Virus record (IMG/VR): IMGVR_UViG_3300022555_003200
DNA length: 64,000 nt
Source: a virus
Lineage: Duplodnaviria; Heunggongvirae; Uroviricota; Caudoviricetes
Strand: one strand, 5' to 3'
Position 1 is the stretch's first letter, and the number at the start of each line of letters is the position of its first letter. A program made the translations under genes and the position numbers. Positions 8,294-32,679 of this stretch are shown piece after piece. The notes beneath the pieces were generated by a model. The model was not told the DNA's origin. It ran no database searches and saw nothing but the letters and a program-made list of their open reading frames with translations.

Positions 8294-9991
8294 ATGCCTA
8301 ATCACGTAACGAACATACTCACCATAGAAGGCCCTACCAAGAGAGTAAAAGAGATCTTTGCTGCCATCTCTCCTGTGGACCCAACGCTTGCCAGTAAGCC
8401 ACTTCCGGCTCGCAAGGCTGGTGTGGTATTTGCTGCGGCCTCTGAAGAAGAGGTGGCCCGCAGAAAAGTAGACATCCACGAGATTGACTTCGGCAAGATC
8501 ATCCCGGCTCCTAAGACGAAGGCATATAGGAACCAGGGATGGTACAACTGGAACATTGAGCATTGGGACACTAAGTGGAATGCCTACAGCCAAGAGAAGG
8601 TAGATGACCATACGATGCGGTTTGATACTGCTTGGGGGGCTCCTTACGCTATCTTTAGAGCACTTAGCGAGAAGTTCCCGGATGTCACTATCAAAGTTAG
8701 GTATGCTGACGAGGACTTTGGCCAGAACTGCGGGGAGCTCGAGTATCGTGGAGGCAGTGAGACCTACAACGCTGGCATAGAGGAAGGAAGCAAGGAAGCC
8801 TATGAGCTAGCGTTTGATGTTAAGGGGTATGGCGCGGATGAGTATGTATACGACGAGAAGAAGGGTACTTATGTCTACAGAGACAACGCTGAAGATAATG
8901 AGCCTGTCCACAACGAGTCAGTTAAGAACGTAGGCAGGATGACTGCGGACCTAAAGAGTATCTTTGAGGCTGATCATGTGTTCAAAGCGGCTAGCGCTGA
9001 GGATGTGGCCAAGCGCAGGGAAGATCTGGACCGGAAGACGGGGGAAGTAAGCAAGTCTTTCTACGACGCTGAGTACAAGAGGAACGTGGACGTTTTACTA
9101 TACAAGCGCCGGTCGGACTGGTCAGACTCAGATGCTCCTAAGTGGACAGTTGAGTTCGACAATGGCTACCACGGCGGGTATTACGTAAGCACAATCTTTG
9201 GGAAGGATGAGAGGATTGGACATTACCGCAGGGTGGGCTGTCGCGGGGTGGGTCTAGTACTGCACGGTGGGGATGAGAACAGGTCAGCAATAGGCGCACA
9301 GTGCATGGATACGATCATGGACTGGATCGCGGCTACGATACATGCTCGCGGCGAGAAGATCGAAGAGGCGGGTGTGATGCCTAACGCAGGGGATGAGAAT
9401 CTGATCAGCCACGAGACTCTTAGCGGAACGGACTACAAGCATCAGTCAGTCAACAAGCCAGTATTTAAGGCTGCTAACCAGGAAGAGCTTGCAAGGCGTG
9501 GGATCAAGCAGCCTAAGTTCCAAAATGGTCAGCGGGTTGTCTACCACACTTCAATACGCGGCATTGATGATTACTTGGATGGGCGCATTGGAACGATAGC
9601 GATGTATCGCCCTGTTGAAGACTCAACAGGCGGGGTGCTTTACCGTTACGAAGTTAAGTTCGTGCACCCATTTATTTTCTTTAGGTGGACTACTGAGGAT
9701 TACCTGACTCCTGTGACGAATGAAGCGGCTGAGGAAGTGTTCAAAGCAGCAAGTCCAGAAGATGTAGCTAAGCGTCCTGAGTCAAAGATTCAGGTTGGGG
9801 ACACAGCAATGTACATGGGCGGAAATCCATCAAGCAAGTACTACCGCAGGTTTTGCAAAGTTACTGACATGCGCACAAATACTTACGGGACTAACTGGGT
9901 AGTGCACGATGTCAGGGCCGACATCAAGTTCCAGGATGGTAAGGGACTTAGGAATGTGGATGTTGATCACTTGGAGAAGATTTTTCAATGA
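8294..9991 (+). CDS. FKAA-tagged polyprotein: YubB/DUF1281-like ferredoxin-fold domain plus two SH3-like modules
   Basis: MPNHVTN...WNIEHWDTKWNAY...FDTAW; 4 tag copies. Confidence 0.75.
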   Translation: MPNHVTNILTIEGPTKRVKEIFAAISPVDPTLASKPLPARKAGVVFAAASEEEVARRKVDIHEIDFGKIIPAPKTKAYRNQGWYNWNIEHWDTKWNAYSQEKVDDHTMRFDTAWGAPYAIFRALSEKFPDVTIKVRYADEDFGQNCGELEYRGGSETYNAGIEEGSKEAYELAFDVKGYGADEYVYDEKKGTYVYRDNAEDNEPVHNESVKNVGRMTADLKSIFEADHVFKAASAEDVAKRREDLDRKTGEVSKSFYDAEYKRNVDVLLYKRRSDWSDSDAPKWTVEFDNGYHGGYYVSTIFGKDERIGHYRRVGCRGVGLVLHGGDENRSAIGAQCMDTIMDWIAATIHARGEKIEEAGVMPNAGDENLISHETLSGTDYKHQSVNKPVFKAANQEELARRGIKQPKFQNGQRVVYHTSIRGIDDYLDGRIGTIAMYRPVEDSTGGVLYRYEVKFVHPFIFFRWTTEDYLTPVTNEAAEEVFKAASPEDVAKRPESKIQVGDTAMYMGGNPSSKYYRRFCKVTDMRTNTYGTNWVVHDVRADIKFQDGKGLRNVDVDHLEKIFQ

Positions 9992-10341
9992 GCCTGGAAA
10001 AAGACATTACATCACTCAAGAAGATCATGGAAGCTGACAACGTCTTCAAGGCTGCTGGTGGTGATGAACTAACCAGGCGCATGGGACCTATAGCCGCTGA
10101 GAAGAAGGCCGCTATTGCCGAGGGCAAGGTATGGTGCAATGACTGCATGAAGGTTCCTAGAGCGCTTATGGTTGAGTTTGGTATAGCTAATCAGAAGGTA
10201 CGGCTTAAAGACGATGGCAAGTCCATCGCTAGCTTGGGAGAGGTGAACGTTCAGGAGCCTAACTACATTGTCTGCGTTGACTGCTACCAGGGTAATTTAG
10301 TGAATGAGAAGCAAATAATAGACAAGCTGAATGATTGGTGA
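9988..10341 (+). CDS. leader + FKAA-tagged Zn-ribbon protein
   Basis: MSLEKDITSLKKIMEADNVFKAAG; WCNDC...CVDC. Confidence 0.8.
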   Translation: MSLEKDITSLKKIMEADNVFKAAGGDELTRRMGPIAAEKKAAIAEGKVWCNDCMKVPRALMVEFGIANQKVRLKDDGKSIASLGEVNVQEPNYIVCVDCYQGNLVNEKQIIDKLNDW

Positions 10342-10344
10342 TTG

Positions 10345-11433
10345 ATGAGCTTAGAAAACGACGTTACTCAGGTGATGGCTCAGCTGCATGAAGGGTATGC
10401 AGACGCTAAACGTACGTTTGTTGACTTGGGGAAGATTGCTGAGGATGCATTTGAGCAGCTTTCTGAGAAAGATCCGACCAGTCAGAAGAAGTACCTTGTG
10501 TGGATGTGCAGGCAATACATTACCACACCCGAGTTAGGAAAGTTCGATATTATCCGGCAGTTCCACGACTTGGCTTTTCGGGGGATTATTAAGAATAGCG
10601 ATATATATTCTTATAAAAGCATCCAAGATGTGGAGAAAGCAGTGGAGGATTCCCAAGGTATATTTACCGGATCTTCTCTTAGGAAAGGGTCTAAAGAGAT
10701 TGGTAAGATCCCAGCAGATATTGTGAGACTTGACAATGACAAGGTTGTGATTATTGAACCCCGTGATAAGAACGAAGCTATTTACTATGGAAGAGGGTCT
10801 AAGTGGTGCACGGCCGCTATGGGAAGAGGCAATCTGTTTAGTAACTACCATACTGCAAACAAGAGGCTCTATTACATTTTAGCTAAGAATCCTACTAATG
10901 AGGAATCAGACAAGTTTGCGGTATCCTACAGGTTGCTTTCACCTCGCGTGTTTGGGCACGAGGATCCATCTAGCACGCCTAGGTATGAATGGATATTATG
11001 GACAAAGGAAGACCGTGGCTATTACCGCAATGACAGGGGGGTAGATACCATCCTTAGTCAACTAGGGTTGTCTGCTAGTGATTTAGCTGGGATGTTTGAT
11101 AAGTATGCTCCAAAAGAGTTCACAATAGGTGAAGCCAGTGTAGTGTATGACTCGCCTAAGATAAAAATCTACTACATAGATGATGTGGATACTGCGATCG
11201 AGCTCGGTAAGGGTACTGAATGGTTTGTGGCCGCTCCTTCCGATAATCAATTTGGTAATTACTACGGAATGAGCGGATACAACATATATTACTGGTTTTC
11301 AAAGATTGATGATCATAAATACTTGATGCTTCAGCCGCCTGCTGATGGTGGCAGTAAGGTGACACTGTGGGACGAACGAATGATTCCCGCTAATTTTAAA
11401 AAGATGGCGGCTAAATATGGAGTTCCTGCATGA
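10345..11433 (+). CDS. leader-bearing protein with two YGxG[ST]xW(C) repeats
   Basis: MSLENDVTQV; YGRGSKWCTA and LGKGTEWFVA. Confidence 0.75.
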   Translation: MSLENDVTQVMAQLHEGYADAKRTFVDLGKIAEDAFEQLSEKDPTSQKKYLVWMCRQYITTPELGKFDIIRQFHDLAFRGIIKNSDIYSYKSIQDVEKAVEDSQGIFTGSSLRKGSKEIGKIPADIVRLDNDKVVIIEPRDKNEAIYYGRGSKWCTAAMGRGNLFSNYHTANKRLYYILAKNPTNEESDKFAVSYRLLSPRVFGHEDPSSTPRYEWILWTKEDRGYYRNDRGVDTILSQLGLSASDLAGMFDKYAPKEFTIGEASVVYDSPKIKIYYIDDVDTAIELGKGTEWFVAAPSDNQFGNYYGMSGYNIYYWFSKIDDHKYLMLQPPADGGSKVTLWDERMIPANFKKMAAKYGVPA

Positions 11434-11855
11434 ATCTATACGAAGCAGTGACATCACTTAAGAAGATGTTTGAAGCGAACTGGGTGTTTAGAGCGGCCGA
11501 CCCGGAAGAGGTTGTGGCGCGTCGGGAGATCTACAAGTCCTGGGTCGTACTGGATACTGCTGATGTGAGGGTTGTTGAGCTTGAGTCTAAGGAACTTGCG
11601 ATCGAGTACGGCAAGGGTACTAAGTGGGAAATCTCAAGCCCTGACGCGTCAAGGAATACGTTCTCTAGATATTACGCACTTGGCTATTCATTTTACATTG
11701 TCTTTAACAAAAGATCAGGCAAGCGAATGGTAGTAAGTATTCCTCCTCCTGATGCCGATTCAACCGACATAGAGTATTACTCGGAAGATAACACTGTTAT
11801 TCCTGAAGAGACGGCTAAGCAGGAGCTGAAAGAACTCGGAGCTATAGCATTATGA
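11430..11855 (+). CDS. leader + FRAA-tagged protein, paralog of the 10345 repeat
   Basis: MFEANWVFRAAD; YGKGTKWEIS. Confidence 0.75.
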   Translation: MNLYEAVTSLKKMFEANWVFRAADPEEVVARREIYKSWVVLDTADVRVVELESKELAIEYGKGTKWEISSPDASRNTFSRYYALGYSFYIVFNKRSGKRMVVSIPPPDADSTDIEYYSEDNTVIPEETAKQELKELGAIAL

Positions 11856-12190
11856 GCTTACACGAAGCAGTGACATCACTTAAGAGAATGTTTGAGGCAA
11901 GTCCAGTCTTCAAAGCTGCCGGGCCAGAGGATATGGATAAGCGTAAGAGTGTGATGTCCTCAGCGAAGCAGAAGGCGTTAGCAGAAGGCAAGGTGTGGTG
12001 CAACGTCTGCGAGGCTGTTCCGACGTCTCTCTCGTGTACTTACGAATGGGCTACAGAAAACGCTAAGCTCAAGGACGGCAAGTTTGTTGACGGGTATTGT
12101 GGTGTCGACGAGACAGGCGATCGCAGTGCGACCAGCTGCGGCGAGTGTTACGAGTATGACTTAGAAAACATGGATAAGGTTGTGTGGTGA
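11852..12190 (+). CDS. leader + FKAA-tagged Zn-ribbon protein, paralog of 9988
   Basis: MFEASPVFKAAG; AEGKVWCNVC...CGEC. Confidence 0.8.
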   Translation: MSLHEAVTSLKRMFEASPVFKAAGPEDMDKRKSVMSSAKQKALAEGKVWCNVCEAVPTSLSCTYEWATENAKLKDGKFVDGYCGVDETGDRSATSCGECYEYDLENMDKVVW

Positions 12191-12191
12191 T

Positions 12192-12467
12192 ATGAGCCTA
12201 TCTAAAGATGTCTCAGAGATAAAGAAACTTGTTGAAGCTAAGCCTGTGTTCAAAGCAGCTAGTAGGGAAGAAGTGGCTAAGAGACCCAATCCCTTTAAGA
12301 CGCACAGGTTTAAGTTTGATCTTTGGAATCTTGTGGATGTGAACGAGCTTAACGAACACCTTGATTCTTTAGTTGGGAATGAAATGCCGTCAGACATTAC
12401 GTATAAGTTTTTAAGAATAACTCCGGATGGCGTTGTTACAGTCGATGCCACTTACGTTGCTGAATAA
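12192..12467 (+). CDS. leader + FKAA-tagged small protein
   Basis: MSLSKDVSEIKKLVEAKPVFKAAS (start ATG 12192). Confidence 0.8.
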   Translation: MSLSKDVSEIKKLVEAKPVFKAASREEVAKRPNPFKTHRFKFDLWNLVDVNELNEHLDSLVGNEMPSDITYKFLRITPDGVVTVDATYVAE

Positions 12468-12480: not shown

Positions 12481-12756
12481 ATGTACGCGGAACTATTAAA
12501 AGAACTCATCGAATCCAGGAAGAAGTACTTCGTTGCCGACAGCATCAATGCTGAAGAAGAGATCGGCTATACAGACGAGCAGCTCTCTGAGGTTATTAGA
12601 GAGAGCATGGAGCTTACAAGCAATCTTTTTAGCGAGATGTGTGAAGTTGAGGAAGTACACGAGAACATTCACAACCCTCGGTGGGGGTACAACGACCAAG
12701 AAGATTTATGTTGGTGCTACAGCCCAGAAGAGAACATGTGCTATTTTTACCGATAG
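12481..12756 (+). CDS. hypothetical protein
   Basis: ATG 12481 with AGGA SD, 91 aa. Confidence 0.6.
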   Translation: MYAELLKELIESRKKYFVADSINAEEEIGYTDEQLSEVIRESMELTSNLFSEMCEVEEVHENIHNPRWGYNDQEDLCWCYSPEENMCYFYR

Positions 12757-12762: not shown

Positions 12763-13455
12763 ATGAATAACTACGGGTACATATATGAAACGATAAATAG
12801 TGCGACGGGGATGCTTTATGTCGGTAAGCATAAGGGCGCTTTTGAGTCTTGGTATCACGGAGGGGGCACGCGTATAAACCGTGCAATTAAAAAATATGGT
12901 AAGAAAGCTTTTACAACAAGGCCAATTGCTTATGCAAGAACTAAGGATGAGCTTAACGAGCTTGAAGTAGAGCACATAGCCAAGTACAAAGCTACGTATG
13001 GGGCAGACAAGCTCTACAACATATCTGAGGGTGGCGACGGAGGCGGCGGCCTTACTCGTCACTCTAGTGATTGTGTGTGCTGTTTTTGCATGGGTAAGCG
13101 TGGAGAGTTGAGTGGGTCTAACTGTCCTAGGTATGGCAAAACGTATCGATATGTTCGTAACAAGGCTACTGGTGAAAGACGTATGATTGCTCCTGAGATG
13201 CTTAGTGAATACATTATTGCCGGCTGGGTTAGATGCTCTACTGGGAGTAGGGTTGGCAAGAATAATGGTATGTACGGTAGACGGCATACAGAGAAAGCTA
13301 GGAAGGGAATGAAGGAGAATCGGCCAGACCAGTCAGGCAAAAGCAATGGTATGTTTGGGGTTCACCGGTATGGAAGCGCCAATCCGATGTTTGGTAAGAG
13401 TGACTCAGCTAAACGTGGCTGGGAGACTAGAAGAAAGAACATGGTGACTAAATGA
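12763..13455 (+). CDS. free-standing GIY-YIG homing endonuclease with NUMOD3-like repeats
   Basis: YGYIYETIN...YVGKH (GIY-YIG); GKNNGMYGRRHT and GKSNGMFG repeats. Confidence 0.85.
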   Translation: MNNYGYIYETINSATGMLYVGKHKGAFESWYHGGGTRINRAIKKYGKKAFTTRPIAYARTKDELNELEVEHIAKYKATYGADKLYNISEGGDGGGGLTRHSSDCVCCFCMGKRGELSGSNCPRYGKTYRYVRNKATGERRMIAPEMLSEYIIAGWVRCSTGSRVGKNNGMYGRRHTEKARKGMKENRPDQSGKSNGMFGVHRYGSANPMFGKSDSAKRGWETRRKNMVTK

Positions 13456-13970
13456 GCCTGTCTAAAGACGCAGCAGAGATCAAGAAGATGGTGGAAGCTA
13501 AGCCTGTATTTAAGGCGGCTAGCCCTGAAGAAGCACAAGCACGTAGAAATGTGACGGCAACTCAGAGGCCTTGGGCTATTTCTAAGAGATCTCCAAAGAT
13601 CATTGAGTCTGCAGATGGCAAGTATCGTATTGCTAAGTTGTTTGGGGATGAGTACGACTCTGATGAAATGGAAGCGAACGGAAAGTTAATTGTAAATGCG
13701 GTTAATGCTTACAAAGCTAGTGTAACTGAAGCTAAGCCAGTTTTCAAGGCAGCTGACCAGGCGGAGCTAAATAAGCGCCGGGCGGCCCGCGGGACTAAGC
13801 TCTACCGTTTCATCTACAAGTGCTATGCAGTTATCGAAGCGGCAAGCCCGGAAGATGCCCAGAGCAGGTTTGAAGAGATCGACCTGTTTTCAGATGACAT
13901 GCACAGCGCACAGGACGTGAAGATCTTCGACGTGCTTGATTCAGGATACCCTGAGGAATACACATCGTGA
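13452..13970 (+). CDS. leader + two FKAA-tagged modules
   Basis: MVEAKPVFKAAS, VTEAKPVFKAAD. Confidence 0.8.
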   Translation: MSLSKDAAEIKKMVEAKPVFKAASPEEAQARRNVTATQRPWAISKRSPKIIESADGKYRIAKLFGDEYDSDEMEANGKLIVNAVNAYKASVTEAKPVFKAADQAELNKRRAARGTKLYRFIYKCYAVIEAASPEDAQSRFEEIDLFSDDMHSAQDVKIFDVLDSGYPEEYTS

Positions 13971-14362
13971 GCTTAGAGAAGGACATTACACTTATCAAGA
14001 GCATGGTTGAGTCCGGTAATCCAGTCTTCAAGGCCGCTAGCCAAGAAGAGGTGGCTAAGAGGAGCCCTAAGGACTTTAAGATACGTATCGAGCCGGCTCC
14101 GGGGGAAGACTACAACATAATTACTGTAAGCAACTTTCGCTTGCCGCTTGGGAATAACTATAGATCAGACCACTTCTTTCGTGCTCTCATCGAAGAGTAT
14201 CCGGAGATCATTGACGAGCTAAGGGCGTACTCAGCCAATGACTCTGTTAGGTTCGACTATCGTGGAAGCTACGGGGCACACGAGGATAACTTTTCTATGT
14301 TAGACATATACGACTATGTGCGTGCTCACTATGACGATGTTCGTGCTAACGAGGAGCTCTAA
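13967..14362 (+). CDS. leader + FKAA-tagged protein
   Basis: MSLEKDITLIKSMVESGNPVFKAAS. Confidence 0.8.
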   Translation: MSLEKDITLIKSMVESGNPVFKAASQEEVAKRSPKDFKIRIEPAPGEDYNIITVSNFRLPLGNNYRSDHFFRALIEEYPEIIDELRAYSANDSVRFDYRGSYGAHEDNFSMLDIYDYVRAHYDDVRANEEL

Positions 14363-14961
14363 TGAAACCGGGACATGACGCGGTAGAACTTAAGAAGCTC
14401 TTCGAAGCTGGTCCAGTCTTTAAGGCAGCTGGCCCCAAGGACCTCAAGCAGCGCAAGAACGCGCTTGGCAAGCCGTGGCTGAGCATTCGTGTGGTGTTAG
14501 CTAATAACGAAGAGCAGGCTGTAGAGCAGGTGGTTGAAGGGAACTTCGAGGAGACTCACCCGCTGTGCGACGTGGTGCTTCCGGCCTCAGACGTTAAGGT
14601 GAACAACAAGTCAGGCAGCACCTGGGCGTGGACCCCGGTTGATCAGATGACCGAAGCTTCCAAGCCTATATTCAGAGCAGCCGGCCAAGAGGATATGTAC
14701 AAGAGGGCGGCGGAGCTTAGGGCTAAGAGTCCAGCAATAACTCCTGAGAACAAAGCTTTAGCGCAACTCTACTGGAAGACTGTTACCGATATCGAGTACG
14801 AGCTTGCCCAGTTGAGAGAGCAGTACGGGTTAGACGATGAAGACAAGTGCGAGTGCGAGATCACGGACTCAATCTCTTTTCCAGATGATTACGGCAGCAT
14901 CGCTAACTACTGCCTCAAGTGTGGTGGTGATGCTGGCAGCCGGCCGGAGGTGGCTGAATGA
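14362..14961 (+). CDS. leader + two FKAA-tagged modules
   Basis: LFEAGPVFKAAG, MTEASKPIFRAAG; C-terminal CxC..CxxC. Confidence 0.8.
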   Translation: MKPGHDAVELKKLFEAGPVFKAAGPKDLKQRKNALGKPWLSIRVVLANNEEQAVEQVVEGNFEETHPLCDVVLPASDVKVNNKSGSTWAWTPVDQMTEASKPIFRAAGQEDMYKRAAELRAKSPAITPENKALAQLYWKTVTDIEYELAQLREQYGLDDEDKCECEITDSISFPDDYGSIANYCLKCGGDAGSRPEVAE

Positions 14962-16889
14962 GCTACGAGCGGGATATTATTGCACTCACGGAAGACATTG
15001 AGAACGCTGTCTTCAAGGCCGCTAACGCTGACCAGATCACTAAGCGCCGTGAGGCGGGGTTGGTTGAGCTTCAGAACAAGTTTAAGCCTGGCACTAAGGT
15101 CATCAAGCACAGTGAGAGTATATGGAATGGAAAGCGTGTTAAGACTTCAGCCAGGGGCGAGGTTATTCAGGTCCATAAGCAGCACACACCAGATGGGTCG
15201 CCGCTGATCTCTGTTCTGTTTGGATATGGAAGAGGTCTTGTATGGCCTGAAGATCTAGAGATCGTCAACGAGGCTGGACCAGTGTTTAAGGCCGCGTCAT
15301 CAGAAGAAGCTGAGAAGCGCAAAGAAGCACACACTAGGAAGCTCACTGACGATACGGTTATTTCAATTTATGTGACCATGGAGCTAGGGGGAAACGTTAT
15401 ATTTAAAGAGGCTCTTGGCGTAACAGACTACAACAAGTACAAACAGCACTTTAACAACGATGACGTGTACAAGTCCGCGAAGGTTCTGGAATATGTAAAA
15501 GCTAGGGCTGTTAAAGAGTGTCAGCTGTATAAAGCGAATGTAGAAGTTCAGAGGGTAGCATTTAATGAATCCTATAGCTACTCGTCTGTGTCATGCAACG
15601 TATGGTTCTCTATAAGGCTCCGAGGGCCAGTTGGCGAGCTTAAGAAGGTTGCTGGTGAAGACAAGGATCTACAGCTTGATTGGAGATACATCGAGGATCA
15701 TATTCTAGAGTCTAACGTATTCAAGGCAGCAAGTCGCGAGGATGCTAGGAAGAGAAGCAACACGGAGTATGAGAAGATCGTAGCTAAGTTCAAGCCGGGG
15801 ACGAAGGTTGAGTACAACGACTATTACGGTTCGAATCCTGATAGATATAGAGTTCTAACTGGAATAGTTGATAGGGTTCGTAATATGCGCCCGCCGCTTC
15901 CGAATCTTACAGGGTTTGACGCGATCGTGGACGTGTACTTCGCAAACATTAAGAGAATGTACAACTTGCCACCTGAGCATTTAACGATTGTTGAGTCAGT
16001 GCGCGAGGCTAAGCCAGTCTTCAGAGCTGCTAGTCCGGAAGAAGTGATGGCCCGTAAGCCACAGCCGAAGATGGTGAAGTACCAGATACCTCTCTACACG
16101 TTTGACCAGCTCGATGGCAAGGCGAAGGATGCTGCTAGGAACTGGATGTATGAGCGTGGGTACTCAGATGTCGACTGGGATATGACTAAAGATGATGCTA
16201 AGCAGGTGGGGGTGGATCTTCACGGAAGAGATAGTGATAGAAGTCCCATGAAGGGTGAGTTTATGTGGGAGCCAGACGAAGTTGCTAAAAAGATTCTTGT
16301 AAACCATGGTAAGGACTGTGGCACCTACAAAGCGGCTAAGGAGTTCATCGCCGACGCTAGAAAAGCTCGTGGTGACGAAGATATGTTTGAAGAGATCACT
16401 CGTGTGTTTCTAGAGAAAGTCCTTGAGGACTACAGGAGATTACTCATAGAAGACGAAACGTACCACGCAAGTGATGAGCATCTTGAAGAGATGGCTGAAG
16501 CAAATCACTTACTATTCACAGAGAGTGGTAAGGCTTTCAGGCCGGACTCCGGCTGGACTATGATCGAGCGGAAGCTTAAGGAAGCCGGTGAGCCCGTGTT
16601 CAGGGCAGCGAGCCGAGAAGACGTTAAGGCTCGCAGGAGATCCGCGGCGCCTGTGTATGTGGTGTTTGACGTTAACATGGTTCCGATAATATTCGACAAC
16701 GAGACTGAGGCGCTTGAGTGTGCGAAGTCTCTCAAGCCGCGTTCAACACCAGGTGGAATGAGGGTAGAAGTCTGTGCTTATGAAGTACTTCCAGGACCTA
16801 AGATTGGCCAGAAGGTTAGACAGATCTATGGGCCACCTAACCAGCTAAGACTGTCATTCATTAAGCAAGCAGCGAGCGGACACTACTAA
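14958..16889 (+). CDS. leader + five FKAA-tagged modules (643 aa polyprotein)
   Basis: 5 tag copies; two KFKPGTKV SH3-like modules. Confidence 0.8.
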   Translation: MSYERDIIALTEDIENAVFKAANADQITKRREAGLVELQNKFKPGTKVIKHSESIWNGKRVKTSARGEVIQVHKQHTPDGSPLISVLFGYGRGLVWPEDLEIVNEAGPVFKAASSEEAEKRKEAHTRKLTDDTVISIYVTMELGGNVIFKEALGVTDYNKYKQHFNNDDVYKSAKVLEYVKARAVKECQLYKANVEVQRVAFNESYSYSSVSCNVWFSIRLRGPVGELKKVAGEDKDLQLDWRYIEDHILESNVFKAASREDARKRSNTEYEKIVAKFKPGTKVEYNDYYGSNPDRYRVLTGIVDRVRNMRPPLPNLTGFDAIVDVYFANIKRMYNLPPEHLTIVESVREAKPVFRAASPEEVMARKPQPKMVKYQIPLYTFDQLDGKAKDAARNWMYERGYSDVDWDMTKDDAKQVGVDLHGRDSDRSPMKGEFMWEPDEVAKKILVNHGKDCGTYKAAKEFIADARKARGDEDMFEEITRVFLEKVLEDYRRLLIEDETYHASDEHLEEMAEANHLLFTESGKAFRPDSGWTMIERKLKEAGEPVFRAASREDVKARRRSAAPVYVVFDVNMVPIIFDNETEALECAKSLKPRSTPGGMRVEVCAYEVLPGPKIGQKVRQIYGPPNQLRLSFIKQAASGHY

Positions 16890-17387
16890 ATGAGCTTAGA
16901 AAACGACATCACAACCGTAAAGATGATGGTTGAGACTAATGATGCTTTTATGGATCACCCAGATCCTAGTGGACTTGGGCATGCGGCAAATGATCCTAGA
17001 AACTGTAAGCTTGTTTGGTGGTATGACCCAAGGTCTGCTGAGTTTGTAAAATCGCGAGATCCTAAGCATCTTCATGTACTTGATGTTAGCCGTAACGTTA
17101 TAAAAGACTATCAGCATTGGGTTCGGGGGCGTGTGTTTCAGTATCAAGGTAAAGGATATCTGGTTGTTTATTTTCCTGAGAAGAAGCACTTATTAAGTCA
17201 TCAACTGGTAGATATTTTGGATAAGGCAATGAATAGCGTCGATATTCAAATAGATAAAGTCATTGATGATAATGGTCGTGATTTGCATGATATGCTCGAG
17301 TCTCTAAACGTTTATACGCTAGAGCACTCTTCTCTTGGAGCATGGAAGATAAATGCGAGTGGATCTGTCATAGAGGTAGCTGTTTAA
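16890..17387 (+). CDS. leader-bearing hypothetical protein
   Basis: MSLENDITTVKMMVE; no FKAA tag. Confidence 0.75.
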   Translation: MSLENDITTVKMMVETNDAFMDHPDPSGLGHAANDPRNCKLVWWYDPRSAEFVKSRDPKHLHVLDVSRNVIKDYQHWVRGRVFQYQGKGYLVVYFPEKKHLLSHQLVDILDKAMNSVDIQIDKVIDDNGRDLHDMLESLNVYTLEHSSLGAWKINASGSVIEVAV

Positions 17388-24718: not shown

Positions 24719-25081
24719 ATGGAAGAAAAGTTAAAGACTTTCGGAGAATTACTAAAAGAGACGCTCGGTGAGCGCACGGCGGAATTGCCGGCTGTGGCAG
24801 AGGAATCGTCAGCTACACTTACTGACTCGGAGCGAGGCGCGATTCTCGAGAAACTTTCGAAAACGAAGCGCGAAACTACCGCCCAACCCCCTTCGGCGGC
24901 AGACAGTCACGGGGAAGACCTTTCGACTGCCTCCTTCGGGTCCTTACTTGAACAAACTGTAAAGCTTCAGGAGGAGATGAGGAACGAGGATCACTCGAAA
25001 GATGACGAGATTCGGGAGAAGGTCATTAAGAGCTCGAAGATGGAGCTGGCTGAAGAGATGATCAAGAGGTTTATGAGATAA
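24719..25081 (+). CDS. acidic hypothetical protein with T4 CTS-like N-terminus
   Basis: KTFGELLKE; 120 aa. Confidence 0.6.
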   Translation: MEEKLKTFGELLKETLGERTAELPAVAEESSATLTDSERGAILEKLSKTKRETTAQPPSAADSHGEDLSTASFGSLLEQTVKLQEEMRNEDHSKDDEIREKVIKSSKMELAEEMIKRFMR

Positions 25082-25341
25082 TGAGCTTTGAGACGGATAT
25101 CACTCAGATCAAGAAGATGGTCGAGGCTGATGAGAAGCCAGTGTTCAGGGCTGCTAGTCAGGAAGAGATCGCCAACCGTCCGGATCCTACTAAAGAGATC
25201 AAGACAAAGCTCACGATTTACATGCCTTTGTACAAGGCTGACGGAACGAAGACGACAAAGGATGAAGCGTACAACACGATCATGGAGCTTGTGATCAACG
25301 CTGGTCTAGAGTGTCAGATCTATGAGCAGGAGATCGAATGA
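25081..25341 (+). CDS. leader + FRAA-tagged small protein
   Basis: MSFETDITQIKKMVEADEKPVFRAAS. Confidence 0.8.
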   Translation: MSFETDITQIKKMVEADEKPVFRAASQEEIANRPDPTKEIKTKLTIYMPLYKADGTKTTKDEAYNTIMELVINAGLECQIYEQEIE

Positions 25342-26123
25342 GCTTAGAACGTGATATCACGGCCATCAAGACTCTTCTAGAGGCCACACCTGTTTTCAAA
25401 GCAGCTGGCCCGGAAGATATGGATAGGCGTGCTGGCGTGACTAGAGCCGCCGAAGATAAAGCTCGCCAAGAGCGCATTGCCATAGCTGGCCCACAGCTTA
25501 GAAAACTCATGGAGCTAGCAAGACTAGCAAGAGCCGCGGATGACGAATACATCAGAGCTAGCGAGAACGATTTTATAGGGAACTACGGTAAGCAGAACGA
25601 CGAGCAACATCCGATCAAGGTGTCCTTCAGCATAAAGGTTTACAACTGGCGCATGCCGGAAGGCGTTGAGGACAAGCTCCGCGATGCCGGGTATCTCGAT
25701 TCAGCATACGAGACAACGAACGAGGACATGGCAGGTGCACTGACAGACTTTGTTGAAGATCTCCAAGCTAAGTATAAGTTCATAAATGGCTGGAGCCAGG
25801 AAGGACGGTCAGGGGGGTGGCTAGTTCTCGACATAGATGATGTTGACAACTCCTACGATGCGTCAAGGTTGACCGGGGACTTTGAGAGCATGGAGTACGC
25901 GTTAGATGAGACAGAGGGGTGGTTGCCGCAGGATTTTAAGTACGCCGAGCAGACTTTTATAGACTACAGGAAGGCGCTAGCTACAAGGCTTCACTGCTTG
26001 ACTGCTATTGAAGCATCAATTGAAAAAGGGAAGAGAGATTTAGAGAAGTGGTTCTCATCAACGGACTACTGGGATTCATACTTTGAAAGAAACGAGATAG
26101 CAGACAAAAGGAGTGAGGTCTAA
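25338..26123 (+). CDS. leader + FKAA-tagged protein
   Basis: LLEATPVFKAAG; GRSGGWL cargo motif. Confidence 0.8.
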   Translation: MSLERDITAIKTLLEATPVFKAAGPEDMDRRAGVTRAAEDKARQERIAIAGPQLRKLMELARLARAADDEYIRASENDFIGNYGKQNDEQHPIKVSFSIKVYNWRMPEGVEDKLRDAGYLDSAYETTNEDMAGALTDFVEDLQAKYKFINGWSQEGRSGGWLVLDIDDVDNSYDASRLTGDFESMEYALDETEGWLPQDFKYAEQTFIDYRKALATRLHCLTAIEASIEKGKRDLEKWFSSTDYWDSYFERNEIADKRSEV

Positions 26124-26124: not shown

Positions 26125-26352
26125 ATGAGTTTTGAGAATGATATTACGCACATCAAGAAGATGATCGAGAAGCTTCAGGCTGAGACTGAAACGATGCCTA
26201 CAGAAGCCCCGGTAATTACCCCGGAAGCTCCTACGCAGCGCCCGGATAAGCCAAGCACTCCTATTCGCAAGATGCCGGGGATTTCCCCAAAGCCGAAGGC
26301 TCTTAATAGGGATACGGAATTATTTTTAGCTAAGCGAGGTATAACTAGGTAA
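26125..26352 (+). CDS. leader-bearing Pro-rich small protein
   Basis: MSFENDITHIKKMIE; PTEAP...PKPKA. Confidence 0.7.
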   Translation: MSFENDITHIKKMIEKLQAETETMPTEAPVITPEAPTQRPDKPSTPIRKMPGISPKPKALNRDTELFLAKRGITR

Positions 26353-27065
26353 TGAGTTACGGTTATGTTTACAAGACCACCAACTTACTTAACGACAGAG
26401 TGTATATAGGACAGAAGAAAGGTCAATTTGACTCTAACTACTTCGGTAGTGGGTTAATTATTAGGAGTGCTTTGAGTAAGGAAGGGTCTAGTAACTTTAG
26501 CTTAGAAGTGTTGGCTTATGGGATGACACGTGACCAGCTCAACGAGCTTGAGATGAAGTTTATAGCTGACTACAGGGAGATGTTAGGTCGGGACACACTA
26601 TATAACATAACTGATGGCGGTGTTGGCGTACGCCGACCGTGTCCTGATTTGGTTAGGCAGAAAATACGAGCTAAGGTACATGCGCCAGACTGCACCTGTA
26701 TGAGTTGCAAGAACACAAGAAAAGAAAAGCATGGAGCTGACTGTTGTTGTGTTGGGTGTAGGAGTAGCCGCGGAGACAGTTTGAATCACAGAGAAGATTG
26801 TAAATGTATTGCGTGTGCACCTATTTACACTAAGAGAGAAGTAAGGACCTGCGTTTGTGGTTGCGGGGGAACGTTTGAGTGCAAGGTATCCTCTAGCAAG
26901 AGGTACATTTTTAACCACCACAAGAGGGGCAGCACTTCTTGGAACAAGGGTAGAACAGGTCTTCAGACATGCTGGAATAAGGGGCTGACCAAATATACGG
27001 ATGGCAGAGTTCTCAAAATGTCTAATAGTCTGACCGGGAAGAAGTATAAAAAGAGGGACTTATAA
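26352..27065 (+). CDS. free-standing GIY-YIG homing endonuclease with Cys-rich repeats
   Basis: YGYVYKTTN...YIGQ; three HxxDCxCxxC repeats; WNKGLTK. Confidence 0.85.
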   Translation: MSYGYVYKTTNLLNDRVYIGQKKGQFDSNYFGSGLIIRSALSKEGSSNFSLEVLAYGMTRDQLNELEMKFIADYREMLGRDTLYNITDGGVGVRRPCPDLVRQKIRAKVHAPDCTCMSCKNTRKEKHGADCCCVGCRSSRGDSLNHREDCKCIACAPIYTKREVRTCVCGCGGTFECKVSSSKRYIFNHHKRGSTSWNKGRTGLQTCWNKGLTKYTDGRVLKMSNSLTGKKYKKRDL

Positions 27066-27066: not shown

Positions 27067-28242
27067 ATGAGCCTAGAGCAGGACATTACAGAGGTAAGGA
27101 AGAAAGTCACAGAAGCAACGCCAGGTAAGAACTACGACATCAGTGTGGTCCCGCAGGACAAGCAGCAGTGGATCTCAGCAGGTGATGATGTCATCAACCA
27201 GATCCTTCCTGGCCTTCCTCCGGAGCAGCAGGAATACTTGATCAAGATCAACAGCGATAGCTACACAGAGCTTGTTGACAGAGTCGAGGCCCTTACGGGC
27301 ATTACAGTCACTCCCCGTAATGTTCCAAGACTTATTGGTCTTGTAATGCAGTCGATCGCCGAAGTTAAGAGTATCGAGAGTAAGAACAAGAATCGCTTAG
27401 AAGAGATGGCTATAGAGCTTGTGTTCAGCGTTCCTGAGTTCAAGGTGGTTGAGCAGGCATACCTAAATGACGAGATCTCGATTGACGCGAAGCTTGGTCC
27501 CGCGGAGCTAAGTAAGCTTACACAGCAGGAGCAGCCCGAAGACCAGGAAGAGATGCAGGATGGTCTTACAACAGACGAAGAGGCTAACCTTGAAGTAGCT
27601 CAGTACCTGGAGAAGGCTACAGATGAGGACATTAAGCGCAGGTTCGCTAACCTGATGACTTCAGGCGGCGCAGTAGGGAAGCTTTATCTATACAACTTGG
27701 CAGCCGATAAGCTTGCCAGGTTCAACCCGAAACTGCCGGCTCTGTATGGTATCCTATCCTCGATTGTCCACCTAGGCTACTGGATAGCTCCTACAGGTAT
27801 AGAGAAGATGGCCGCTCAGAGAGAAGACACAAGCATGGGCTCTGAGGAAGTGGTTTCTGATGGAGACAAGTACGTCATCAAGGCTCGTGCGGTCACATTC
27901 CCGTATCTAGTTCACGAGCTTGTTAAGGGCATTTACGAGTACCTCGCCTTAGATCCTAACCAGCAGAATGCTATGAAGAAAGATAACGTCGAAGCTGAGA
28001 CGCGTGACTTCATGGCAGGCCCCGGAATCCACAAGACCGTTTTATCCTACATACCGGATGACAAGCAGGAGTTGATCCCTATGGTTCAAAGTAAGCTAAC
28101 AGCCATGGCTCCTGCGGATATCAAGGATGTGCTCGCTAAGAACTTTAACGGCAAGAAGATCATGGCGGACCTCATGAAGCAGGCTGAAGAAGAGTGGTCT
28201 GGTTATAAACAGAAGAAAGATAACTACAAGGAGTCCTTCTAG
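27067..28242 (+). CDS. leader-bearing helical hypothetical protein (391 aa)
   Basis: MSLEQDITEVRKKVTE; IKARAVTFPYLVHELVKG. Confidence 0.75.
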   Translation: MSLEQDITEVRKKVTEATPGKNYDISVVPQDKQQWISAGDDVINQILPGLPPEQQEYLIKINSDSYTELVDRVEALTGITVTPRNVPRLIGLVMQSIAEVKSIESKNKNRLEEMAIELVFSVPEFKVVEQAYLNDEISIDAKLGPAELSKLTQQEQPEDQEEMQDGLTTDEEANLEVAQYLEKATDEDIKRRFANLMTSGGAVGKLYLYNLAADKLARFNPKLPALYGILSSIVHLGYWIAPTGIEKMAAQREDTSMGSEEVVSDGDKYVIKARAVTFPYLVHELVKGIYEYLALDPNQQNAMKKDNVEAETRDFMAGPGIHKTVLSYIPDDKQELIPMVQSKLTAMAPADIKDVLAKNFNGKKIMADLMKQAEEEWSGYKQKKDNYKESF

Positions 28243-28622: not shown

Positions 28623-28797
28623 TGGAACTGACATTTCTAACTGCATACGTTGCGGAAGTGACAAGCTTGAGAAGGTTGTGTGGCAGTCACCGTACGTTGT
28701 TGGATCCAGGGATACCAATAAAGTTTTGAGGAAGTGGGGACTCAACTGCATCAGGGACTACACCTGTAACAATTGCGGGGTTACGTGGAGGGACTAG
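28615..28797 (+). CDS. small Zn-ribbon protein
   Basis: CIRC...CNNC. Confidence 0.5.
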   Translation: MASGTDISNCIRCGSDKLEKVVWQSPYVVGSRDTNKVLRKWGLNCIRDYTCNNCGVTWRD

Positions 28798-28799
28798 CG

Positions 28800-29633
28800 A
28801 TGGGAATAATTTCATTTTTAAAGGGGCTTCTTCCGAAGAAGGTTGTCATCCGGAAGTACGGGTACATTCGCGATCGTAAGGACTCACGTGACAAGATGTA
28901 TAAAGATTTTATGGCGGATGAGGTTGGAATAACTGCAAATCTACCACAAACTGTTGATCTCACAAGTAAGCTTCCTCCTTGCTACGACCAGGGACAGCTT
29001 GGCTCTTGCACGGCCAACGGTATTGCTGCTGCTATCGAGTTTATTCAGCCAGGGTTTATGCCAAGCCGATTGTTCATTTACTATAACGAACGGGCTATGG
29101 AAGGCACTGTCTCACAGGACTCAGGTGCTCAGATCCGTGATGGCATTAAGGCTGTCGTAAGTGACGGAGTTTGTCCTGAGAGCATGTGGAAGTACAACCC
29201 GTCTATCTTCTGGGTCAAGCCATGGCCTTGCTGCTACGCGAAGGCGAAGAAAGATAAGGTCAATGCCTACCTACGCGTTACTGGTACTCAGGAACTTCAG
29301 AGCTGCTTGGCTGCTGGGTTCCCCGTAGTTATTGGTATTCAGGTGTATGAAAGCTTGGAGTCGCCGGCAGTTGCCAGGACAGGTATTGTTCCTATGCCGG
29401 GGGCCAACGAGCAGTGTGTCGGCGGGCATTGCGTCCTTGTTGTCGGGTATGACATTGGGAAACAAATGTTTCTTGTAAGAAACAGTTGGGGAACTGACTG
29501 GGGCATCAATGGGAACTTTTGGATACCGTTTGCATATCTGGCGGATCCCAAGCTTTGCTCGGATAACTGGACTATCCGCGGTGCTAACGTGCTTAAGCTA
29601 ATTAAGAAATCAGCCGGTAAGAAGAAGTCATAA
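28800..29633 (+). CDS. papain-family (C1A) cysteine peptidase
   Basis: DQGQLGSCTA (Gln/Cys), GGHCVLVVGY (His), RNSWG (Asn). Confidence 0.92.
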   Translation: MGIISFLKGLLPKKVVIRKYGYIRDRKDSRDKMYKDFMADEVGITANLPQTVDLTSKLPPCYDQGQLGSCTANGIAAAIEFIQPGFMPSRLFIYYNERAMEGTVSQDSGAQIRDGIKAVVSDGVCPESMWKYNPSIFWVKPWPCCYAKAKKDKVNAYLRVTGTQELQSCLAAGFPVVIGIQVYESLESPAVARTGIVPMPGANEQCVGGHCVLVVGYDIGKQMFLVRNSWGTDWGINGNFWIPFAYLADPKLCSDNWTIRGANVLKLIKKSAGKKKS

Positions 29634-29646: not shown

Positions 29647-30807
29647 GTGAGTTTTGAGAATGATATTACAGAGATTTATAAGCTTGCTAAAGCGGGTGAG
29701 CCACTCCTAGAGGGGTTTGCTGAAGCCAGAAGGCGCTACGTTGAAACTCTTGATCCTGCGACACAACAACCGCTGATGCCTCTTGCAATGCTTAAGCGAC
29801 TTGCTGCTAAGGATCCTACATACCCGGCTAAGGGAAAGTACGTTGAGTGGATCGCTAAACAGTACATGAACAGCCACAGTATGCGTGGGCTAGACGCGGT
29901 AAAGGAGTTCGACAAAATCCTTACCACTAAGCCGACGTACCTCGAGAAGAAGGACATCAACCAGTACACCACGGTTGATGATCTCCATAACGCAGTTGAC
30001 GCAGTACGGGCCAGGGTTTCCGCGGAACGTGAGCAGAAGAAGGATAGGATTGTCCGCGGACTTCTTGCGAAAGCCGGAGGGTCTGAGGACAAGGCTTTCA
30101 AGTGGGCTGCCGGGCAGGGTGCAGTTCGTAACGCCGCACACGATGCCGGTGAGCAGATATCTGATGAAGAGGCAGCTAGAAGGGCCGCAGAGCTAGGAAG
30201 AGGCAGCCTTGTGAACGAGTATGGCATTACTCTTGAGTACGTTAAGAAGATCAAGAAAAAGATGCAGGCAGAAGGAGCAGGAGCTGCCTGGAGAGACTTT
30301 TCGATCGACACCGACATCTTTAACGAGATAGCGCGTGAGCCATATTCCATTGAGACTAAAGATTCTGATGGTAAAGTTACTACCGTACCCCTTCCGGCCG
30401 ATCTCGTATTCGAGAACGACAAGGTAGCAATCGTATGTCCTCCTAACGAGGAGAAGAGCAGGCTGTATGGACGCGATCCTGACTATGATCCGAACGATCC
30501 ACATCAGACCGGTTCTCCGTGGTGTACTTCATACGCCACTCGCAGCACCCAGTGGGGTAACTACTACGGGCGCCAGGGAGATACGTTCTATATCATTATG
30601 CCTAAGAGCATTGATATCGTTCCTGAAAAGAGGTTTAAGAAGATCAATGTTCAGGTAAAGGCAAAGCGTCATGGTGAGACTGATGACTCCCCCGTGCGTT
30701 TGACTGCATGGGACTGCAACGATACTCCTATCCCGAGACCTGAGTCCAGGAAGATATTCAAGGCTTGGGGTATACCGCCACAGAAAACTGTGGATGACAA
30801 CGATTAG
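29647..30807 (+). CDS. leader-bearing WCT-motif protein, paralog of 10345
   Basis: KYVEWIAKQY...KDINQY; SPWCTS...YY...FYII. Confidence 0.75.
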   Translation: MSFENDITEIYKLAKAGEPLLEGFAEARRRYVETLDPATQQPLMPLAMLKRLAAKDPTYPAKGKYVEWIAKQYMNSHSMRGLDAVKEFDKILTTKPTYLEKKDINQYTTVDDLHNAVDAVRARVSAEREQKKDRIVRGLLAKAGGSEDKAFKWAAGQGAVRNAAHDAGEQISDEEAARRAAELGRGSLVNEYGITLEYVKKIKKKMQAEGAGAAWRDFSIDTDIFNEIAREPYSIETKDSDGKVTTVPLPADLVFENDKVAIVCPPNEEKSRLYGRDPDYDPNDPHQTGSPWCTSYATRSTQWGNYYGRQGDTFYIIMPKSIDIVPEKRFKKINVQVKAKRHGETDDSPVRLTAWDCNDTPIPRPESRKIFKAWGIPPQKTVDDND

Positions 30808-30808
30808 C

Positions 30809-31084
30809 ATGAGCTTGGAAAAAGACATATCCCAAATTAAGAAGCTTGTTGAAGACGACAGTGTCTTTAAGGCTGCCGGTCCTGACGAAGTGTCCAAAAG
30901 ACCAAAGCACTACGTTGACGCTCTTAAAGAGACTGTAGACACTCTTATTGGTAGGCTGAACTGGCTTAAGCACGACTTGGACAGGGGAGTCATTACGTTA
31001 GATGTTGATGTGCAGTCTGCTGCTAAGAAGGTTCATCTATATTTGAAATCTGCAGAACATGAGCTCGATGAGAGTGGATTATGA
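30809..31084 (+). CDS. leader + FKAA-tagged small protein
   Basis: MSLEKDISQIKKLVEDDSVFKAAG. Confidence 0.8.
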   Translation: MSLEKDISQIKKLVEDDSVFKAAGPDEVSKRPKHYVDALKETVDTLIGRLNWLKHDLDRGVITLDVDVQSAAKKVHLYLKSAEHELDESGL

Positions 31085-32679
31085 GCCTGGAAAAAGACAT
31101 CACATCACTCAAGAAGATCATGGAAGCTGACAACGTCTTCAAGGCTGCTGGGCCGGATGAGCTTAAGAAGCGCGGGTGGCATAGGGATGTAGATTCTATG
31201 CTGAAGGTCAACACTATTCAGAACAGAGACTACAGCATCTCTGGGCCACATTGGATTGGACGTTCAGAGAACCACCATGACTCCTATGCTCGCAAGACAG
31301 AAGGGGCTCAGTGGGCTGTTTATATTATGCAGAGAGACCATGATTTTGATACTACTATGAAGAACTTGGATCGTAGGCTCGCGGCCTGTGTGCGTAAGTA
31401 TTTTAAGACAGAGGCTGAAGCCACTCAGTATATGAGCACAGACGCGTTTGAGAGAGACCTACCTACGCTTGTTGAAGCCGAGCAGGTGTTTAAGGCAGCA
31501 GGACCAGATGAGCTGGCACAGCGCAGGGTTGAGTATCCGGAGACAACTCATTTTCACGGTGGCAGAGTGTATGGCCCGGGGTCTAACCGTGGGTTTATAA
31601 GTAACTGGATTAATGGGGTACGTAATACAGCGCGTCCAAGAAACATGCGCAGTGAGGGAGATGTTCTCTACTCTTATGGAACTCCGATCGCCATTAAGAA
31701 GGAAGGGCTTATTTACTCTGTGGACAGGAGGTTTTCTGTAACGACGTCTAAGCAACAATACTATGTCAGAACACAGGCCGGAGATAGGCTCAGGCTTGTG
31801 CCGCAGGATGAGTTTAAGGCTCTGGCACGCGAGGCTGGAGCGAACTACATGGGGTGGCTCGGAGAGTCTGTAAGCGAGGCTAAGCCAATATTCAGAGCAG
31901 CTGGGCCGGAAGACATCGCCAAGCGTAAGGAAGACAGGATCAAGGCTATTGGGGCTCATGCTGATGCTAATAGTGGTGAGTGGTTTGAGATAGCAAGGGC
32001 CGAGCTCTCGAGGGAGCTTGCGGTAGCTATTGAGCTTGTTGATGACGGTGGTCTTTACGGGCCGGCTACTATGCAGGCAGTGGATGGCGAGGGGAGCAAC
32101 GGGGAGAGGGAGTGGGCCGTCTACAGGGATTCTGATAACGCTGAGCAGGCGGCTATCGCCAGAGTAACTGAGGACATGAATGATGATCCGCCCATGTTTA
32201 CAGAGAGTTTCATTCAGCAATACATTTCTATTCGTCCAACGGATAGGCGGATGATCGCTCAGGAGGAGTCTGATAATTATGTGGATGAAGTGCTGCGGGA
32301 CGCGGACGTTTTAGAAGAAGCTGGGGTGACTGACGAATACGAGGAGCTCCAGGCAAAGATAGACAGTACGCGCTCTGAGGCTAGGAAAATAGCGTTAGAG
32401 AAGACACAGGAAGACATGCTTGAGTCCGCTAAAGAGACAGTTCGCGAGAAGAAGTATGACGAGATCCATGCCGCTCTTGAGGACCCGATTCAGTATTTTG
32501 TTCATGACCATGGTATTTATAGCATTCAAGACCTTATGAAAGCTAGCTTTATATACATTGATACCGATGAAGCTGCCAAAGATGCAGTGGACACGGATGG
32601 AGTAGCGCACTTTCTTGACAACTACGATGGTAGCGAAGTCGATCTTCCGAGTGGCGCAGTAGCGTTTGGTACTAACTAA
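31081..32679 (+). CDS. leader + three FKAA-tagged modules (532 aa)
   Basis: IMEADNVFKAAG, LVEAEQVFKAAG, VSEAKPIFRAAG. Confidence 0.8.
   Translation: MSLEKDITSLKKIMEADNVFKAAGPDELKKRGWHRDVDSMLKVNTIQNRDYSISGPHWIGRSENHHDSYARKTEGAQWAVYIMQRDHDFDTTMKNLDRRLAACVRKYFKTEAEATQYMSTDAFERDLPTLVEAEQVFKAAGPDELAQRRVEYPETTHFHGGRVYGPGSNRGFISNWINGVRNTARPRNMRSEGDVLYSYGTPIAIKKEGLIYSVDRRFSVTTSKQQYYVRTQAGDRLRLVPQDEFKALAREAGANYMGWLGESVSEAKPIFRAAGPEDIAKRKEDRIKAIGAHADANSGEWFEIARAELSRELAVAIELVDDGGLYGPATMQAVDGEGSNGEREWAVYRDSDNAEQAAIARVTEDMNDDPPMFTESFIQQYISIRPTDRRMIAQEESDNYVDEVLRDADVLEEAGVTDEYEELQAKIDSTRSEARKIALEKTQEDMLESAKETVREKKYDEIHAALEDPIQYFVHDHGIYSIQDLMKASFIYIDTDEAAKDAVDTDGVAHFLDNYDGSEVDLPSGAVAFGTN

Follow-up and report, generated by a model that had tools for sequence, protein, structure and literature searches.

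We analysed a 64,000-nucleotide stretch of DNA (the window; IMG/VR virus record IMGVR_UViG_3300022555_003200) from an uncultured myophage of about 200 kb with a T4-type capsid. The window corresponds to the virion module of this phage, and all real genes in it lie on the + strand. The genes, named here by the position at which their open reading frames (ORFs) start, follow the order portal, a 24-kb block of small genes and polyproteins, gene 32700, protease (37538), capsid (39674), and then neck, sheath (53974) and baseplate. Many genes of the block open with a shared 15-residue peptide, here called the leader, and a second short motif, the FKAA tag, usually follows it and also recurs inside the polyproteins. 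The leader genes occupy the interval from the portal gene to the protease and capsid genes, which are the following:

1945-8064, + strand: T4-type portal gene with inteins, at the upstream edge of the leader-gene block (PF07230, 3e-23; Intein_splicing, 2e-84)
37538-39652, + strand: prohead protease (about residues 1-230) with a long helical, scaffold-like C-terminal part (phrog_207, 2e-15)
39674-41149, + strand: gp23-type major capsid protein (PF07068, 2e-30), with hydrophobic-x-Glu (h-x-E) sites in its propeptide

The leaders were scored in bits with a position-specific scoring matrix (PSSM). They are listed with their scores and with the length in amino acids (aa) of the product of each gene:

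9988-10032, + strand: leader of a 117-aa gene, FKAA tag after it (38.2, at the ORF start)
10345-10389, + strand: leader of a 362-aa gene, no FKAA tag (26.7)
11430-11474, + strand: diverged leader (MNLYEAVT...) of a 141-aa gene, with tag (15.6, not used in training)
11852-11896, + strand: leader of a 112-aa gene, with tag (21.5)
12192-12236, + strand: leader of a 91-aa gene, with tag (32.1)
13452-13496, + strand: leader of a 172-aa two-tag gene, its start overlapping the stop of a GIY-YIG endonuclease gene (32.3)
13967-14011, + strand: leader (GTG start) of a 131-aa gene, with tag (36.7)
14362-14406, + strand: half-decayed leader (MKPGHDAVELKKLFE) of a 199-aa two-tag gene (2.9)
14958-15002, + strand: leader of a 643-aa five-tag polyprotein (20.8)
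16890-16934, + strand: leader of a 165-aa gene, no tag (37.0)
17387-17431, + strand: leader of a 938-aa polyprotein with six internal tags (38.4)
20740-20784, + strand: leader of a 126-aa zinc-ribbon gene, with tag (38.3)
21117-21170, + strand: 18-codon leader variant of a 110-aa gene, with tag (20.1, not used in training)
21446-21490, + strand: leader of a 203-aa gene, with tag (43.7)
25081-25125, + strand: leader of an 86-aa gene, with tag (40.4)
25338-25382, + strand: leader of a 261-aa gene, with tag (31.2)
26125-26169, + strand: leader of the 75-aa upstream half of a split gene, aligning with the N-terminus of unsplit orthologs (41.4)
27067-27114, + strand: leader of the 391-aa downstream half of the split gene (30.4, and alignment)
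29647-29691, + strand: leader (GTG start) of a 386-aa gene, no tag (35.8)
30809-30853, + strand: leader of a 91-aa gene, with tag (37.9)
31081-31125, + strand: leader of a 532-aa three-tag polyprotein (38.2)
41248-41292, + strand: leader of a TnsA-like endonuclease gene directly after the capsid gene (23.0; PF08722, 6e-8)

Comparison of 101 leaders gave the consensus M-S-[LF]-E-[KN]-D-[IV]-T-x-[ILV]-K-[KR]-[LIM]-[VFLIM]-E-[AD], in which the 15 residues are counted to the Glu. The matrix was trained on 18 of the 21 starts that a preliminary description of this DNA had listed as sharing an N-terminal leader, and 11430, 21117 and 41248, which stood outside the training set, still scored 15.6, 20.1 and 23.0 bits. 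The listed starts were present as stated there: 20 of the 21, together with 41248, scored 15.6-43.7 bits, each exactly at the start of a + strand ORF, and the top score elsewhere in a six-frame scan of the window was 11.5 bits. The motif was found nowhere in the window inside proteins, in other frames or on the opposite strand. The nearest relative found, IMG/VR contig UViG_3300029288_003766 (G001; loci L005-L015; 214,968 bp, 100% complete by CheckV), has a capsid protein 82% identical to that of the window. When this genome was scanned with the window-trained matrix, 23 ORF starts scored 18-40 bits and one further start 12.1 bits; across the 215 kb, the best score away from these starts was 14.7 bits, at an internal position. 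Additionally, a profile of leader plus tag retrieved 152 proteins at E <= 0.001 from 1.84 billion cluster representatives, and among the best 150 of these the leader stood at residue 1 in 114 and at an internal position in none.

Individual members of the preliminary list fared differently. Gene 14362 did not hold up as a full leader start, as it retains the second half and the cut site only. Among the looser members proposed further downstream, 41248 proved to be a true member, and its ortholog in the relative scored 30.3 bits. The others (44069, 44908, 45498 and 46077) scored below 11 bits and have in common only a short amphipathic N-terminus ending in h-x-E; 44908 carries a variant leader and a tag, and 44069, 45498 and 46077 were dropped because their N-termini, which are conserved in G001, are ortholog-specific and lack the shared leader. 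A short T4-like leader suggested at 57508 found no support either, the gene lying among tail genes. Two genes within the block, 12481-12756 and 24719-25081, have short T4-like amphipathic starts ending in h-x-E (MYAELLKELIE/S and MEEKLKTFGELLKE/T, the slash marking the position behind the Glu). The start of 24719 is conserved in its G001 ortholog, and 12481 was absent from the preliminary list; judged by their residues, both are plausible short leaders.

The genome-wide distribution of the leader was determined in the complete G001. The 23 copies of at least 18 bits all fell between 124.3 and 154.7 kb, a 31-kb region around the capsid gene, and all copies together lay within 123.6-154.7 kb, which corresponds to the portal-to-capsid interval and one gene just past the capsid gene. 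Between 9 and 106 kb of G001, no leader was found on the genes for the CCA-adding enzyme, RtcB, DNA methyltransferase, DnaB, a second helicase, DNA polymerase, SbcCD or GroEL. A leader equally common on replication or metabolism genes would have spoken against a head-specific role, and the count there was zero.

To place the window among known phages, the head region was compared with cultured phages by megablast, which gave no match, and the closest cultured capsid proteins were only about 27% identical. Scans against Pfam and PHROGs left most bodies of the leader genes (the cargo) with no known family. Similarity between these bodies was found in only 12 of 231 pairs, mostly through internal FKAA tags, and between the window and its G001 orthologs the leaders were 60% identical, compared with 27-60% for the bodies.

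The leader is conserved as a peptide. The codons at its conserved residues varied (Leu3 CTG/TTA/CTA/TTG, Glu GAA/GAG, Ile ATT/ATC/ATA), with 634 synonymous and 746 identical codon pairs in the window, and codon bias was seen only at Ser2 (always AGY) and Leu3 (almost always YTR). The DNA upstream of the leaders was not conserved, and many starts overlapped the preceding stop codon. Because synonymous codons vary freely, selection acts on the peptide, and the leader is a peptide signal and not a nucleic-acid signal. The T4 late-promoter octamer had no + strand match in the window, and its matches in G001 showed no leader-gene pattern. The conserved start could otherwise be a signal in the nucleic acid, serving translation initiation, transcription as a promoter, or recombination or homing as a target site, or it could simply have been left behind by gene duplication. 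The restricted codons of Ser2 and Leu3 would fit such a signal, as would two GIY-YIG genes located immediately 5' of leader starts and the nearly identical DNA of 9988 and 31081, which differ by one base across their first 60 nucleotides. Set against the abundant synonymous differences, the unconserved upstream DNA, the unrelated bodies and an amino-acid pattern held across 114 clusters less than 50% identical to each other, we found this explanation very improbable. The two GIY-YIG genes (12763-13455 and 26352-27065) are homologous, and a leader start codon comes directly after the end of each; the DNA that encodes the leader, being repeated, might be a landing or homing site.

AlphaFold2 (AF2) models of leader and tag contained a helix at residues 3-15, an extended FKAA core and a short helix beyond it. 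The hydrophobic residues of the leader fall at positions 3, 7, 10 and 13/14, and its hydrophobic moment was 0.47, compared with 0.25 +/- 0.13 in shuffled leaders; the amphipathic helix previously suggested from the hydrophobic spacing thus agrees with both analyses. At the end of the leader, a Glu occupied position 15 (P1) in 90 of 101 sequences and L, I or M occupied P3 in 96 of 101, with mostly Ala or Asp at P1'. The motif [LIVMT]-x-E was also present 2-5 residues (most commonly three) upstream of 33 of the 35 FKAA tags in the window, including all but one or two of the internal tags. The earlier observation that the leader usually ends at a Glu therefore stood, and this Glu15 is better read as P1 of a cut site that also heads the FKAA tags. 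Internal junctions had nothing in common with the leader beyond the cut motif; for this reason the first 12 residues of the leader appear to be a feature of translated N-termini only, needless for cut or tag.

At the level of the motif, the leader thus ends in hydrophobic-x-Glu, the prohead-protease motif of T4-type capsid-targeting sequences, and the window encodes both a gp21-type protease and a gp23-type capsid protein, as judged by the matches to T4 gp21 (5JBL), PF07068 and PF07230. In particular, the AlphaFold model of the protease domain (mean predicted confidence, pLDDT, 79.5) had T4 gp21 (5JBL) as its sole significant match in the PDB, with an E-value of 4e-7 and a TM score of 0.68 on the target. 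A phmmer search of the protease against PDB sequences gave nothing useful, and the fold search alone found the match. His76 and Ser140 of the protease were invariant in five relatives. From its sequence and fold, 37538 is presumed to be the enzyme that removes the leader. Its C-terminal part contains many h-x-E sites, as expected of a scaffold that is digested, and the capsid propeptide carries L-L-E63 and I-F-E74 just ahead of the Gp23 domain. No gp22 homolog was found in the window; the helical C-terminal extension of the protease stands in its place. A complex prediction of leader plus tag with the whole protease-scaffold protein scored 0.00, below the mark, and counts neither way. About residues 445-458 of 37538 (38870-38911) form a stretch, VFK-V-PEEQAK, that resembles the FKAA tag, and five relatives keep its N, F, K, A and V without change. 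A hidden Markov model of the tag run on six-frame ORFs missed this stretch, and the resemblance was set aside as unsupported.

Other classes of N-terminal leader were also considered. A Sec or Tat signal peptide was ruled out, as charged and hydrophobic residues alternate in a predicted amphipathic helix with no hydrophobic core of seven or more residues, and a C39 double-glycine leader was ruled out, as the leader has no GG site and G001 lacks the C1/C39-like peptidase. This peptidase, encoded at 28773-29633, belongs to the papain family and has no leader of its own. It might process leader and tag in the manner in which C39 peptidases process double-glycine leaders, since it matches Peptidase_C1 (PF00112, 3e-13) and weakly C39_2 and its gene lies inside the leader block. 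That proposal is hardly credible given that G001 has the full leader and tag system and no homolog of the peptidase, that the junction is h-x-E and not Gly-Gly, and that the spacing of double-glycine leaders is absent.

A natural split of one leader gene allowed us to compare one chain with two. The interrupting gene is as follows:

26352-27065, + strand: GIY-YIG homing-endonuclease gene splitting 26125 and 27067 (an ORF, assigned by reading its N-terminal motif and not by a family scan)

The family of 27067 has about 100 homologs, is widespread in virion modules and is located between neck and sheath genes in a distant relative. A tblastn search with 27067 found no cultured relative, and a search for related loci with it returned none. 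Six close orthologs of 26125/27067 are unsplit genes of 456-473 aa, each with a single leader and, further in, a linker rich in proline and a V-[VT]-E-A site, and the GIY-YIG gene, which interrupts the ortholog in the window, is absent from all six. In the window, the upstream piece retains the original leader, and the downstream piece opens with twelve leader residues that the unsplit orthologs lack at this place, attached precisely at the ancestral internal K-V-T-E-A site. The reverse case is found in 123661 of G001, which is a separate leader gene there and in several other relatives, and whose window counterpart lies internally in the polyprotein 8294-9991; this fused module keeps only I-E-E/A-G-V-M-P and no leader. 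Since the split and the fused cases both fit, these sequences suggest a rule of one leader for every chain translated on its own, with internal modules needing only the cut site.

More distant lineages have other leaders in the same place, and this interchangeability speaks for a targeting role. Orthologs of 27067 with 37-46% identity open with different amphipathic peptides, likewise short and with h-x-E at the end, such as MFKNLLNILME and MDKNLKNVILKLVEE. In locus L016, three adjacent virion genes share the leader M-[LF]-[NK]-x-L...E, which is followed in one of them by a tag variant. In L018, a small contig of a sister lineage, the orthologs of 20740 and 17387 open with the 10-residue peptides MRELIQQLME and MRELIEAIQE with the tag directly after them; these resemble the T4 targeting sequence in length and pattern only. 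No MSLEKDIT leader was found within 10 kb upstream of the capsid gene in L002-L004, the capsid proteins of which are 67-69% identical to that of the window. In L002 (capsid 69% identical), positions 67-2697 encode a polyprotein of more than 876 aa in which the variant tag h-x-E/KD-IFKGAS is repeated at least three times, and the available L002 sequence contains no MSLEKDIT leader.

Leader and FKAA tag are separable, as the preliminary description had argued from five tagless leader genes (10345, 16890, 26125, 27067 and 29647). These were found to be tagless, and with 41248 and 17387, in which the first tag lies near residue 80, seven leader genes have no adjacent tag. Conversely, eight small leaderless genes of G001, far from the head module, open directly with M-x(2-6)-[VI]FKAAT; some lie on the minus strand and two adjoin DnaB. 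The N-termini of these tag-only proteins resemble the end expected after cleavage behind Glu15, which lends indirect support to that cut site and suggests, as far as sequence comparison goes, that the tag is no loading signal and acts inside the cell, close to a free N-terminus. Four small genes of G001 (within 112243-112862 and 117367-117612, or L010:12243-12862 and 17367-17612) combine an N-terminal FKAA tag with a piece of the major capsid protein of the same phage, corresponding to residues 250-313, 18-61, 435-463 and 27-52, respectively (blastp E-values of 5e-16, 1e-19, 4e-8 and 1e-4). Their products could regulate assembly or act as decoys, or the genes could have been left over from partial duplication driven by endonucleases.

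The roles of the two motifs might also be exchanged, with the FKAA tag as the real loading or retention signal and the leader as a removable cap that masks tag or cargo until the protease acts. The tag heads every module, so that each cleaved piece would retain one, it is broader than the leader, with variants in L002 and L016, which both lack the MSLEKDIT leader, and tag-only proteins begin M-x(2-6)-[VI]FKAA, near the predicted N-terminus after cleavage. We nevertheless considered this arrangement unlikely, because the seven window leader genes above have no adjacent tag, the split gene 27067 regained a leader yet has no tag, and the tag-only genes of G001 are found at a distance from the head genes, within the replication module and minus-strand blocks, a location that suggests that the tag acts in the cytoplasm.

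Several neighbouring genes were also inspected. In the portal gene (1945-8064), Intein_splicing matched in four stretches and HNH_3 in three, corresponding to several inteins with HNH endonucleases. The 565-aa polyprotein 8294-9991 has an N-terminal DUF1281/Api92-like domain (PF18406, 2e-16) and three FKAA tags, and it lacks a leader. The stretch before its first tag (…MTADLKSIFE/A, about 8921-8971) resembles a decayed internal leader, a relic that also forms the end of the G001 ortholog. Within the DUF1281 region lies a degenerate tag, VFAAAS. Gene 32700-36410 encodes a conserved 1236-aa head-module protein with one internal FKAA tag and no good leader in the window; its 1263-aa ortholog in G001 (146223) begins with a leader, and its C-terminal domain is common to 21446 and conserved in L002-L004. 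The TnsA-like endonuclease gene spans 41248-42006, and its product may be a packaged nuclease. Its homolog in a distant relative (L016:5697-6602; 37% identical, E 3e-19) has no leader and sits within a split capsid gene, resembling a mobile endonuclease.

Taken together, the leader is probably a lineage-specific capsid-targeting propeptide that is cut off by the prohead protease, a reading drawn from sequence patterns and from analogy with T4. The preliminary description had likewise proposed a longer, lineage-specific targeting sequence; the core of that proposal is supported by the restriction to the head module, the h-x-E end together with the gp21 fold, the strictly N-terminal position and the split and fused genes, and its list of members held only in part. 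In this mechanism, the leader helix would dock each precursor onto the assembling scaffolding core, and the capsid shell would close round the docked precursor. The gp21-type protease would then cut behind Glu15 and at each internal h-x-E ahead of an FKAA tag, as its fold and the motif imply. This cut would remove the address and let the polyproteins fall into modules, each starting about three residues ahead of its FKAA tag. The freed leader peptide would exit the head, and the tagged modules would stay inside until they are delivered to the host together with the DNA, on the model of T4 (PMC9958956, PMC3012670).

The leader proteins might instead belong to a disposable core or scaffold, as T4 gp67 and gp68 do, and would then be degraded and expelled, with the helix as an assembly element. 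In T4, the genes of gp67 and gp68 lie between portal and protease, as the leader genes do here. The heptad-like hydrophobic spacing at leader positions 3, 7, 10 and 14 and the many cut sites in the bodies would also suit such a role. Against it, the bodies are folded domains of diverse kinds, among them zinc ribbons, a TnsA-like nuclease and the conserved family of the 391-aa protein, the internal cuts fall between modules and not inside them, and two relatives with 82% identity in their capsid proteins have strongly different sets of genes. We therefore regarded a scaffold role as quite improbable and retained the targeting propeptide as the preferred explanation.

A capsid-targeting sequence (CTS) of T4 was reportedly described by Mullaney and Black in 1996. 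The T4 CTS is carried by the internal proteins IPI-III and Alt (PMC9958956, PMC3012670, PMC5694885), and it is an established principle that diverse internal proteins of T-even phages share only this sequence (PMC3012670). The proteases of T4 (gp21), phiKZ and SPN3US cleave after Glu, with a preference at P3 (PMC5694885). Like the T4 CTS, the leader is a short peptide (within 10-20 residues) at the extreme N-terminus of diverse, unrelated and fast-evolving proteins, ends in hydrophobic-x-Glu and accompanies a gp21-type protease; the two phages also share gp20-, gp21- and gp23-type head genes and one address per chain. The two differ in that the leader has 15 residues and the T4 CTS about 10, and in that 21-24 genes per genome carry the leader, compared with a handful in T4. 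The leader genes are clustered from portal to protease, whereas those of T4 are scattered, and their cargo is mostly acidic and often in the form of polyproteins, usually with an FKAA tag, which T4 lacks; the function proposed here is by inference.

Similarities were also found to the giant phages phiKZ, 201phi2-1 and SPN3US, in which many head-internal proteins are cut after Glu by a gp21-related protease (PMC5694885, PMC7411985, PMC10052503). The SPN3US paralogs gp53 and gp54 have an identical 15-residue N-terminus, and the propeptides of giant phages are thought to target the prohead. However, those propeptides are mostly longer than 100 residues and end in A/S/G-x-E, whereas the leader is one family on about 20 unrelated genes and ends in L/I/M-x-E.

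Some observations weigh against a targeting role. The polyprotein 8294 and the protein 32700 have no good leader in the window, so that either the leader would not be the sole route into the block or both proteins would be unpackaged. The mature cargo is mostly acidic (isoelectric points of 4.4-6.2), compared with the basic internal proteins of T4. Additionally, the FKAA tag itself could contribute to retention or targeting. Finally, the leader is not significantly similar in sequence to the T4 CTS (MKTYQEFIAE) and falls outside that sequence family, the only common elements being Met1 and the terminal h-x-E; we therefore treated the leader as an analog and not a homolog of the T4 CTS.

The principle of the T4 CTS is already known. 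What is new here is a distinct and longer family, found on more than 20 genes and in at least 114 clusters, together with its site between portal and protease and its coupling to polyproteins and to another tag. Neither the leader string nor the tag string was found in any paper by a literature search. It is possible, although doubtful, that the two motifs form a two-part code. The leader would be a graftable address, as on the split-gene half and the TnsA-like nuclease, and its removal by the protease would expose the FKAA tag about three residues from the new N-terminus. Small proteins that are not packaged, including the mini-proteins made of capsid fragments, would carry the tag directly, and the tag would act in the infected cell as a handle for injected and newly made proteins alike, giving an evolvable cargo platform of more than 100 families.

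If the leader is indeed a targeting propeptide, these phages would devote about 12% of a 200-kb genome to 20-25 capsid-addressed proteins, far beyond T4, and would inject a large toolkit into the host. The split gene would be rare evolutionary evidence that the address is needed once per chain. The leader would offer a sequence rule, a motif at residue 1 together with h-x-E, by which virion cargo may be predicted in the metagenomic phages of this clade. Given a host, a 15-residue tag with a built-in cut site would possibly be useful for loading proteins.

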